A stretch of 64,000 bases of DNA from Escherichia coli (GTDB taxonomy: Bacteria > Pseudomonadota > Gammaproteobacteria > Enterobacterales > Enterobacteriaceae). The stretch's first letter is position 1, and each line of letters starts with the position of its first letter. The notes under the pieces are model-generated. The model ran no database searches. It saw only the letters and a program-made list of their open reading frames with translations, and was not told the DNA's origin. The position numbers and the translations under genes were made by a program. The stretch lies in assembly GCF_044647545.1 (NCBI RefSeq), contig NZ_CP172818.1. The stretch is one strand, 5' to 3'. Positions 22,409 to 23,910 of this stretch are shown piece after piece.

Positions 22409-22524
22409 TGGCGGGGCCATCTGTACGCGTGAATGAATGGTTCAGTGCTTATGCGATGGCGGGTGTGGCTTACAGCCGTGTTTCGACGTTCTCCGGGGAT
22501 TATCTCCGCGTAACTGACAACAAG
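22407..22524 (+). pseudogene. lomR: Lom-family outer membrane protein, internal fragment upstream of IS5
   Basis: Frame MAGPSVRVNEWFSAYAMAGVAYSRVSTFSGDYLRVTDNK runs into IS5 left end. Confidence 0.5.
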
Positions 22525-23720
22525 GGAAGGTGCGAATAAGCAGGTCATTTCTTCCCAAGCTGACTCGTTGATTAAAATTTCGCGGATCTGGGCCGATTTT
22601 TTTCCCGCAAACACATCGAATCAGCCTATTTAGGCTATTTTTTCCACCATTTCTGGCGTTATTTCCGGTTTTTACTGAGATCTCTCCCACTGACGTATCA
22701 TTTGGTCCACCCGAAACAGGTTGGCCAGGGTGAATAACATCGCCAGTTGGTTATCGTTTTTCAGCAGCCCCTTGTATCTGGCTTTCACGAAGCCGAACTG
22801 CCGCTTGATGATGCGAAACGGGTGCTCCACCTTGGCACGGATGCTGGCTTTCATGTATTCGATGTTGATGGCCGTTTTGTTCTTGCGCGGATGCTGCTTC
22901 AAGGTTTTTACCTTGCCGGGACGCTCGGCGATCAGCCAGTCCACATCCACCTCGGCCAGCTCCTCGCGCTGTGGCGCTCCTTGGTAGCCGGCATCGGCTG
23001 AGACAAATTGCTCCTCTCCATGAAGCAGATTACCCAGCTGATTGAGGTCATGCTCGTTGGCCGCGGTGGTGACTAGGCTGTGGGTCAGGCCACTCTTGGC
23101 ATCGACACCAATGTGGGCCTTCATGCCAAAGTGCCACTGATTGCCTTTCTTGGTCTGATGCATCTCCGGATCGCGTTGCTGCTCTTTGTTCTTGGTAGAG
23201 CTGGGTGCCTCAATGATGGTGGCATCCACCAAAGTGCCTTGGGTCATCATGACGCCTGCTTCGGCCAGCCAGCGATTGATGGTCTTGAACAATTGACGGG
23301 CCAGTTGATGCTGCTCGAGCAGGTGGCGGAAATTCATGATGGTGGTGCGATCCGGCAGGGCGCTATCCAGAGATAATCGGGCAAACAGGCGCATGGAGGC
23401 GATTTCGTACAGGGCATCTTCCATGGCACCGTCGCTCAGGTTGTACCAATGCTGCATGCAGTGAATACGCAGCATGGTCTCCAGCGGATAGGGCCGTCGG
23501 CCATTGCCCGCCTTGGGATAAAACGGCTCGATGACAGCGGTCATATTCTGCCATGGCAGAATCTGCTCCATGCGGGAGAGGAAAATCTCTTTTCGGGTCT
23601 GACGGCGCTTAGTGCTGAATTCACTATCGGCGAAGGTGAGTTGATGGCTCATGATGTCCCTCTGGGATGCGCTCCGGATGAATATGATGATCTCATATCA
23701 GGAACTTGTTCGCACCTTCC
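22525..23720. mobile_element. IS5 insertion sequence
   Basis: Terminal inverted repeats ggaaggtgcgaataag / cttgttcgcaccttcc; ~1196 bp; flanked by CAAG direct repeat. Confidence 0.92.
22672..23652 (-). CDS. insH: IS5 transposase InsH
   Basis: 326-aa ORF inside IS5. Confidence 0.92.
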
Positions 23721-23910
23721 CAAGGGGAAAACGCACGATGTGCTGACCGGAAGTGATGACGATCGCCACAGCAACACGTCTCTGGCGTGGGGAGCTGGCG
23801 TGCAGTTTAACCCGACCGAATCCGTGGCCATTGACATTGCTTATGAAGGCTCCGGCAGTGGCGACTGGCGCACTGACGGTTTCATCGTGGGTGTCGGTTA
23901 TAAATTCTGA
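23721..23910 (+). pseudogene. lomR: Lom-family outer membrane protein, C-terminal fragment
   Basis: Ends with OMP beta-barrel signature ...GFIVGVGYKF; resumes after IS5. Confidence 0.7.

Follow-up and report, generated by a model that had tools for sequence, protein, structure and literature searches.

The locus analysed here is the lomR::IS5Y arrangement annotated in the Rac prophage of Escherichia coli K-12 and, as such, is already known. We are highly confident that it represents the Rac arrangement ynaA'-lomR'-IS5Y-'lomR-stfR of K-12 and that a simple DDE transposition event produced it, in a cryptic-prophage pseudogene that was already truncated. It lies in a window of 64,000 nucleotides (contig NZ_CP172818.1 of assembly GCF_044647545.1), by which we mean the whole stretch of DNA that was analysed. 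The lom gene in this window was inactivated twice, by a deletion junction and by the insertion of an IS element, and the latter is ISKpn26 of Enterobacterales resistance plasmids at the nucleotide level rather than the IS5 of K-12.

Boundaries and ends of the insertion element

The IS5-family insertion sequence (ISKpn26; "IS5Y" in K-12) occupies 22525-23720 on the minus strand (1196 bp), as defined by its ends, its identity to ISKpn26 copies and the NC_000913.3 annotation; the window contains no second copy. A left CAAG (22521-22524), within the lomR' 5' fragment, and a right CAAG (23721-23724), the second copy of a 4-bp target-site duplication, were read directly, and the span 22521-23724 given in the first-pass annotation runs exactly from CAAG to CAAG. 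The terminal inverted repeats, GGAAGGTGCGAATAAG at the transposase-distal end (22525-22540) and CTTGTTCGCACCTTCC at the transposase-proximal end (23705-23720), are 16 bp long with 15 of 16 positions complementary and are the same as the ends of IS5A in K-12. The intact inverted repeats that had been noted at first pass, with CAAG directly at both ends, are thus present, with one mismatch. An alternative boundary with a 17-bp inverted repeat and an element of 22524-23721 was rejected, the extra pair being the flanking G and C by chance; with these limits the flanks show no direct repeat, and the correct model is therefore an element of 1196 bp flanked by a duplicated 4-bp target.

An intact transposase gene (insH5-like, 326 aa) was found in the open reading frame list at 22672-23652 on the minus strand. 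Its product matches Pfam DDE_Tnp_1 (PF01609; E=4.5e-35, profile 5-200 of 200) and also DUF772 (PF05598). The element therefore carries the DDE_Tnp_1-type transposase, the 16-bp inverted repeats and the 4-bp duplication by which IS5-family elements are recognized.

Identity of the element

The first-pass annotation had named the element IS5, a label that is right at the family level only. Alignment with IS5A of K-12 gave 1088 identities over 1197 aligned positions (90.9% nucleotide identity; 1196 versus 1195 bp), the terminal 100 bp on both sides being 73-78% identical and the central part 94-99%. By ISfinder convention, isoforms share at least about 95% nucleotide identity, and the element falls below this value with respect to IS5A. 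It is 100.0% identical over 1196 bp to at least 13 plasmid copies from E. coli, E. fergusonii and Salmonella that are annotated as 'IS5-like element ISKpn26 family transposase', and it has the length and near-identity expected of ISKpn26. Matches to the element were present in at least 5000 plasmid records, with Klebsiella the commonest organism among the matches listed. ISKpn26 was described as a 1196-bp member of the IS5 family that generates a 4-bp direct repeat, including an insertion in Klebsiella acrR (PMC8023600). The 1195-bp IS5 of K-12, exemplified by nmpC::IS5 in DLP12, shares with the present element the family, the 16-bp inverted repeats, the 4-bp duplication and a transposase that is 97.9% identical (319 of 326 residues of InsH, seven differing), although only 90.9% of the nucleotides agree and the sub-terminal regions are strongly diverged. 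The nmpC insertion also offers a parallel of another kind, as there too an IS interrupts a prophage-borne gene for an outer-membrane protein.

Compared with the lomR copy of K-12 itself (IS5Y), the element is 99.6% identical, with five differences, and the transposase differs from InsH5 at two residues (H254N and K274R; H254/K274 in the window, N254/R274 in K-12). In a study of the eleven K-12 "IS5" copies published in 2024, the lomR copy was regarded as a mutant IS5, 91.5% similar and non-transposing (PMC11677980), and IS5Y is classed elsewhere in the literature as a separate single-copy subtype. The five nucleotide differences lie at 22568, 22832, 22893, 23074 and 23371. Gene conversion by a resident IS5 was considered as their source, as K-12 has the IS5 base at three of the five sites; however, the sites are isolated, and one of them, 23074 (element position 550, or 647 when counted from the other end), coincides with G647A, a polymorphism described for ISKpn26 copies of Klebsiella (PMC8023600).

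Target-site preference

CAAG is a rare, off-consensus target for ISKpn26. Duplications from 220 de novo IS5 events showed a strong YTAR motif (PMC5009759), from which CAAG departs by its A at position 2, YTAR being a preference and not a defining rule; the classical IS5 consensus C(A/T)A(G/A), quoted in PMC11677980, does fit CAAG. The four bases outside one end were tallied for 66 ISKpn26 copies in species-representative genomes, giving TTAG (23), CTAA (18), CTAG (10), TTAA (8), CTAT (3), ATAG (2), TTAT (1) and CAAA (1). YTAR was thus found in 59 of the 66 sampled flanks, A at position 2 in one (the CAAA), and CAAG in none. Typical ISKpn26 insertions have a YTAR target, such as CTAG in acrR, whereas the present copy sits at CAAG in a chromosomal prophage pseudogene. 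Matching 4-bp flanks were found for only 5 of the 14 complete ISKpn26 copies of this sample, which makes the perfect duplication observed here informative. A side observation from the same tally is that 36 of the 66 matches to the ISKpn26 end come from one draft genome, Shimwellia pseudoproteus DSM 3038, and lie mostly at contig ends, which points to a large ISKpn26 expansion in this species.

Reconstruction of the empty site

The uninterrupted sequence was reconstructed by removal of 22525-23724 (1200 bp, comprising the element and one CAAG), which joins ...GTAACTGACAACAAG to GGGAAAACGCACG... in frame. The joined translation matched the Pfam family Ail_Lom (PF06316) with E=2.7e-75 and 252.9 bits, against a gathering cut-off of 23, over profile positions 69-199 of 199. 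Alignment of the reconstructed lom with an intact lom of 199 codons from E. coli AR_0085 showed no gap across the junction, and the same was true for a second intact lom, carried by a prophage at the same chromosomal position beside uspF in another genome. Both intact genes read GTAACTGACAACAAGGGGAAAACGCACG at the junction and contain CAAG once only. As chance alone would produce matching 4-bp flanks in 1/256 of cases, it is the single CAAG in both intact genes that identifies the duplication as real and not as a 1-in-256 coincidence. The first-pass annotation, which had placed an IS5 within lom with a CAAG target duplication and had suggested looking for a continuous lom frame after removal of the IS and one copy of the duplication, was therefore correct in regard to both an IS5-family insertion with a genuine 4-bp duplication, on the evidence of the flanks and the two empty sites, and the restored frame. 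With regard to the K-12 reference, the lomR pseudogene of NC_000913.3 is annotated as a join of 1427389..1427598 and 1428796..1428984, which retains three of the four duplicated bases and yields ...DNKKGKT... with an extra Lys, while removal of the whole duplication gives ...DNKGKT..., the same as in the intact lom genes.

lom remnants and a second lesion upstream

The two lom pieces on either side of the element are both read from the plus strand. The lomR' 5' fragment (22313-22524) covers approximately codons 69-138 of 199, in frame from 22315, as judged from the intact-lom alignments, the Ail_Lom match and the K-12 annotation 'gene fragment 1 of lomR'. The 'lomR 3' fragment (23725-23910), delimited by the open reading frame list, the intact-lom alignment, the Ail_Lom match and the K-12 annotation, covers codons 139-199. 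The split frame and the C-terminal GVGYKF reported at first pass were both recovered, the latter being followed by a stop codon at 23908-23910. The implication that lom is intact apart from the insertion did not hold, since the restored frame is only a fragment that matches Ail_Lom from 69 to 199 of 199, and a second lesion is located at approximately 22312/22313. In comparison with lambda Lom and the Ail/Lom family (PF06316), the window lom shares profile positions 69-199 and the C-terminal GVGYKF, but it is a pseudogene, interrupted by the element and missing residues 1-68. The complete reading frame, signal peptide and full barrel of a functional Ail/Lom protein are absent, as profile positions 1-68 are missing and there is no start codon.

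Upstream of the lom homology, which begins at approximately 22313, lies the N-terminal third of a tape-measure gene. This is ynaA (tmpR'; 21380-22312, plus strand), which its PGAP-annotated K-12 equivalent and Pfam TMP_2 identify as an N-terminal remnant of the tail tape-measure gene of Rac, the TMP_2 match being confined to profile positions 2-46 of 208 (residues 267-311). The ynaA segment is 100% identical to K-12, and its open frame continues out of frame into lom up to a stop at 22408. The lom frame is +2 relative to ynaA and has stop codons just upstream. At approximately 22312/22313, therefore, the truncated tape-measure gene is fused out of frame to lom codon 69, and this deletion junction is identical in K-12, where PGAP labels ynaA as "missing C-terminus" and lom as "missing N-terminus and C-terminus". 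Because the deletion removed lom codons 1-68, removal of the element would not restore a gene. The element was considered as the cause of the ynaA/lom deletion and was rejected, the deletion junction at approximately 22312 lying 212 bp from the element end.

Effect on stfR and neighbouring transcription

The first-pass annotation had also proposed that the insertion separates lom from stfR and may contribute outward-reading promoter activity. The former does not describe the locus accurately, as a 3' piece of lom and a terminator still intervene between the element and stfR. From the element end at 23720 to the stfR start at 23975 lie the 186-bp 3' lom fragment and the strong intrinsic terminator of lom (23937-23965, plus strand), whose hairpin (23937-23958) has an 8-bp stem with seven G-C pairs and is followed by a T-run. 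The transposase is oriented such that it reads away from stfR.

Outward promoter activity was likewise unsupported. A consensus scan of both strands of 22200-24100 for sigma-70-like promoters found none, against 1.5 ± 1.1 expected by chance, a negative result that is weak evidence because the scan is insensitive and also misses the known weak ins5A promoter region. The internal IS5 promoters Pins5A and Pins5CB were reported to be negligible and nearly silent, while the bent-DNA/IHF region of IS5 was implicated in promoter activation (PMC11677980, the latter in its Fig. 1 legend). The corresponding bent-DNA/IHF-type end of the present element, which is 73-87% identical to IS5, is on the far side from stfR (22525-22700).

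The element does contribute coding sequence to the 3' lom piece. A hybrid open reading frame of 88 codons (23644-23910, plus strand) takes its ATG and approximately its first 26 codons from the element, where it runs antisense to the transposase 5' end, and continues in frame into 3' lom. Its ATG at 23644 is preceded by a Shine-Dalgarno-like AGGTGA, and the same reading frame is present in K-12. According to a preprint, the K-12 3' lomR fragment is transcribed and a product termed 'LomR-B3' is active in a phage-induction assay (10.1101/2021.11.15.468771). The sole APD tripeptide of the hybrid reading frame lies in its element-derived rather than its lom-derived part, and we infer that it corresponds to the critical residues of that preprint. 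Some outward or local transcription is possible, given the 3' fragment transcripts reported there for K-12. At the opposite end of the element, an 82-codon minus-strand open reading frame (22442-22690) crosses the boundary between the element and the 5' lom fragment. In K-12 it has the PGAP entry WP_306304598.1 (hypothetical protein), and it is probably spurious.

Rac prophage context

The window is collinear with Rac of K-12 MG1655, in the order ydaS...trkG-ynaK-ydaY-ynaA-lomR'-IS-'lomR-stfR-tfaR-pinR. Direct repeats of 43 bp bound the prophage at 6788-6830 and approximately 29886-29928 (attL/attR at ttcA/ttcC), while the Rac-free genome GCA_021222565.4 has a single copy; integration at ttcA, the att repeats and the gene order all identify the prophage as Rac. 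The annotation of NC_000913.3 contains an 'insertion sequence:IS5Y' at 1427599-1428794 (1196 bp, minus strand), flanked by lomR fragments 1 and 2; the first-pass annotation had not identified the locus with this K-12 feature. The K-12 locus lomR::IS5Y (insH5; NC_000913.3 1427389-1428984) agrees with the window in the gene, the insertion point, the orientation, the CAAG duplication, the ynaA/lom junction and the downstream order stfR-tfaR-pinR, but the window differs from it at 5 of 1196 nucleotides in the element, at 15 of 399 in the two lom pieces and patchily in stfR. Of 5426 complete E. coli genomes, 335-344 carry the occupied junction, and those listed are largely K-12 laboratory strains. 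The exact allele combination of the window was present in none of the database genomes searched. A 72-mer of the left junction with the window-specific SNPs had no match in GTDB species representatives or JGI metagenomes, and a 58-mer of the junction common to K-12 had none in metagenomes, probably because metagenome assemblies break at the element. For the StfR of the window, searches for exact matches at 1121 and 1123 aa found no recorded protein.

Apparent mosaic nature of the window

The window is not a K-12 sequence, and none of the database genomes matches it as a whole. Positions 1-6830 and 29887-41505 agree without a single mismatch (100%) with GCA_021222565.4, where they are directly adjacent; this genome has no Rac, a single att copy and no feaR-tynA-paa island. 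The segments missing from it are K-12-identical in the window, apart from short patches and a 9.3-kb stretch. The end of the window (approximately 62830-64000) falls, by collinearity, inside the K-12 IS2 copy that interrupts ydbA, which is, like the lomR insertion, a K-12-specific feature in a backbone that is not K-12.

Patches that differ from K-12 are located at 22383-22488, 23739-23904, 23968-24322, 26500-28000, 18151-18303 and approximately 10000-11000, with Rac being otherwise identical. They affect recE, the rzpR region, the lom fragments, the element, the stfR N-terminus, and the stfR C-terminus together with tfaR; the patch in the stfR N-terminus consists mostly of third-codon changes and a 3-bp insertion. 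The patched sequences have paralogues in other lambdoid prophages or IS copies, and the patches may reflect either gene conversion or mis-mapped paralogous reads. The 9.3-kb stretch (43573-52933; by collinearity feaB, tynA, paaZ and paaA-E) carries 127 small indels and approximately 390 substitutions relative to K-12, and its long open reading frames are all broken, while its flanks are 100% K-12-identical. The best identity of 44000-48000 to any complete E. coli genome is 95.5%. The stretch resembles a corrupted consensus more than naturally diverged sequence.

The most economical account, which we lean towards, is that the window is a K-12-templated consensus or chimeric assembly, in which uncovered reference was kept and paralogous reads were mis-mapped. 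If so, the lomR::IS junction would be the K-12 reference junction and may not physically exist in the sequenced strain, and other copies in that strain would be the source of both the perfect ISKpn26 sequence and the variant bases in lom. A natural origin of the window, by recombination or by transfer, is possible. The latter would involve the entry of a K-12-type dead Rac with lomR::ISKpn26 into an E. coli lineage that lacked Rac and its integration exactly at the att site of ttcA, followed by patchwise conversion from resident lambdoid prophages and homogenisation of the element to plasmid ISKpn26, and the flanks that are 100% identical to the Rac-free genome right up to the att repeats are consistent with it. 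We consider this course of events unlikely, however, as the 9.3 kb of garbled sequence and the fea-paa-ydbA::IS2 segment identical to K-12 favour a reference-templated artefact. With either origin, what the window shows is the lomR::IS5Y arrangement of K-12. The apparent mosaic or templated character of the window calls for caution with findings from its K-12-identical segments.

Discussion

The arrangement itself arose when a single ISKpn26-type element transposed into the outer-membrane-protein gene lom at codon 138/139, where a 4-bp staggered cut by its DDE transposase at CAAG led to the tetranucleotide being duplicated at both ends. A separate deletion removed codons 1-68 of lom and the 3' portion of the tape-measure gene, presumably along with the intervening tail genes. 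As the deletion also inactivates lom, the insertion sits in a pseudogene of a defective prophage, where it appears to have no obvious selective role. Most likely, the element acts only as a block to any read-through from upstream, and it is probably not an activator of stfR. Several observations speak against this account. The CAAG target departs from the YTAR preference, and the lom fragments differ from K-12 at 15 of 399 nucleotides, in contrast to only 5 of 1196 in the element, so that flanks and element do not share one simple history. The possible K-12-templated origin of the window and the 3' fragment transcripts reported for K-12 also weigh against it.

Another proposal is that the two lom pieces come from different copies and were joined by recombination between two IS copies. 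Their difference from K-12 is approximately 7% across 22383-22488 and approximately 2.6% in the 3' piece, and the finding of matching flanks in only 5 of 14 complete ISKpn26 copies suggests that IS-mediated rearrangement is common. Nevertheless, alignment with the two intact genes shows the pieces meeting exactly, and in frame, at a single CAAG, K-12 has identical junctions, and both parents would have needed the element at the same site, which renders this proposal extremely improbable. The view that a canonical 1195-bp IS5 interrupts an otherwise intact lom, from which excision would restore a functional gene, is refuted by the identity of the element and by the incompleteness of lom. The shared 16-bp inverted repeats of IS5A, the 319 of 326 transposase residues identical to InsH and the continuous frame after removal would fit this view, but an element of 1196 bp with 90.9% identity to IS5A, 73-78% in the terminal 100 bp and 100% identity to ISKpn26 does not, and codons 1-68, the start codon and the signal peptide of lom are all missing.

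A functional role for the element deserves somewhat more weight, although we still regard it as improbable. The element could have been co-opted to supply a start codon, and possibly transcription, for the 88-aa IS::Lom hybrid, or to activate stfR-tfaR. The in-frame ATG at 23644 behind AGGTGA, with its reading frame into the 3' lom piece, is compatible with such a role, and so are the transcription and 'LomR-B3' activity reported for K-12 in the preprint, together with the element-encoded APD tripeptide, if it corresponds to the critical residues as we suppose. Arguing against co-option, no sigma-70-like promoter was found, Pins5A and Pins5CB are negligible (PMC11677980), the hybrid product would have neither a signal peptide nor most of the beta-barrel, and a strong terminator stands ahead of stfR. 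Moreover, the IS5 activating end with its bent DNA/IHF region is on the far side (22525-22700), and the activity is described in a single preprint. Simple transposition into a dead lom is the account that we retain.

The arrangement is of little import in itself, being annotated in the best-studied genome of any bacterium and located in an already dead gene. The identity of the element is of small practical value: the lomR copy described as a "mutant IS5" (PMC11677980) would be better called ISKpn26, an IS5-family element in its own right that is highly successful on resistance plasmids, and this identity reframes why the lomR copy behaves unlike the other IS5 copies of K-12.
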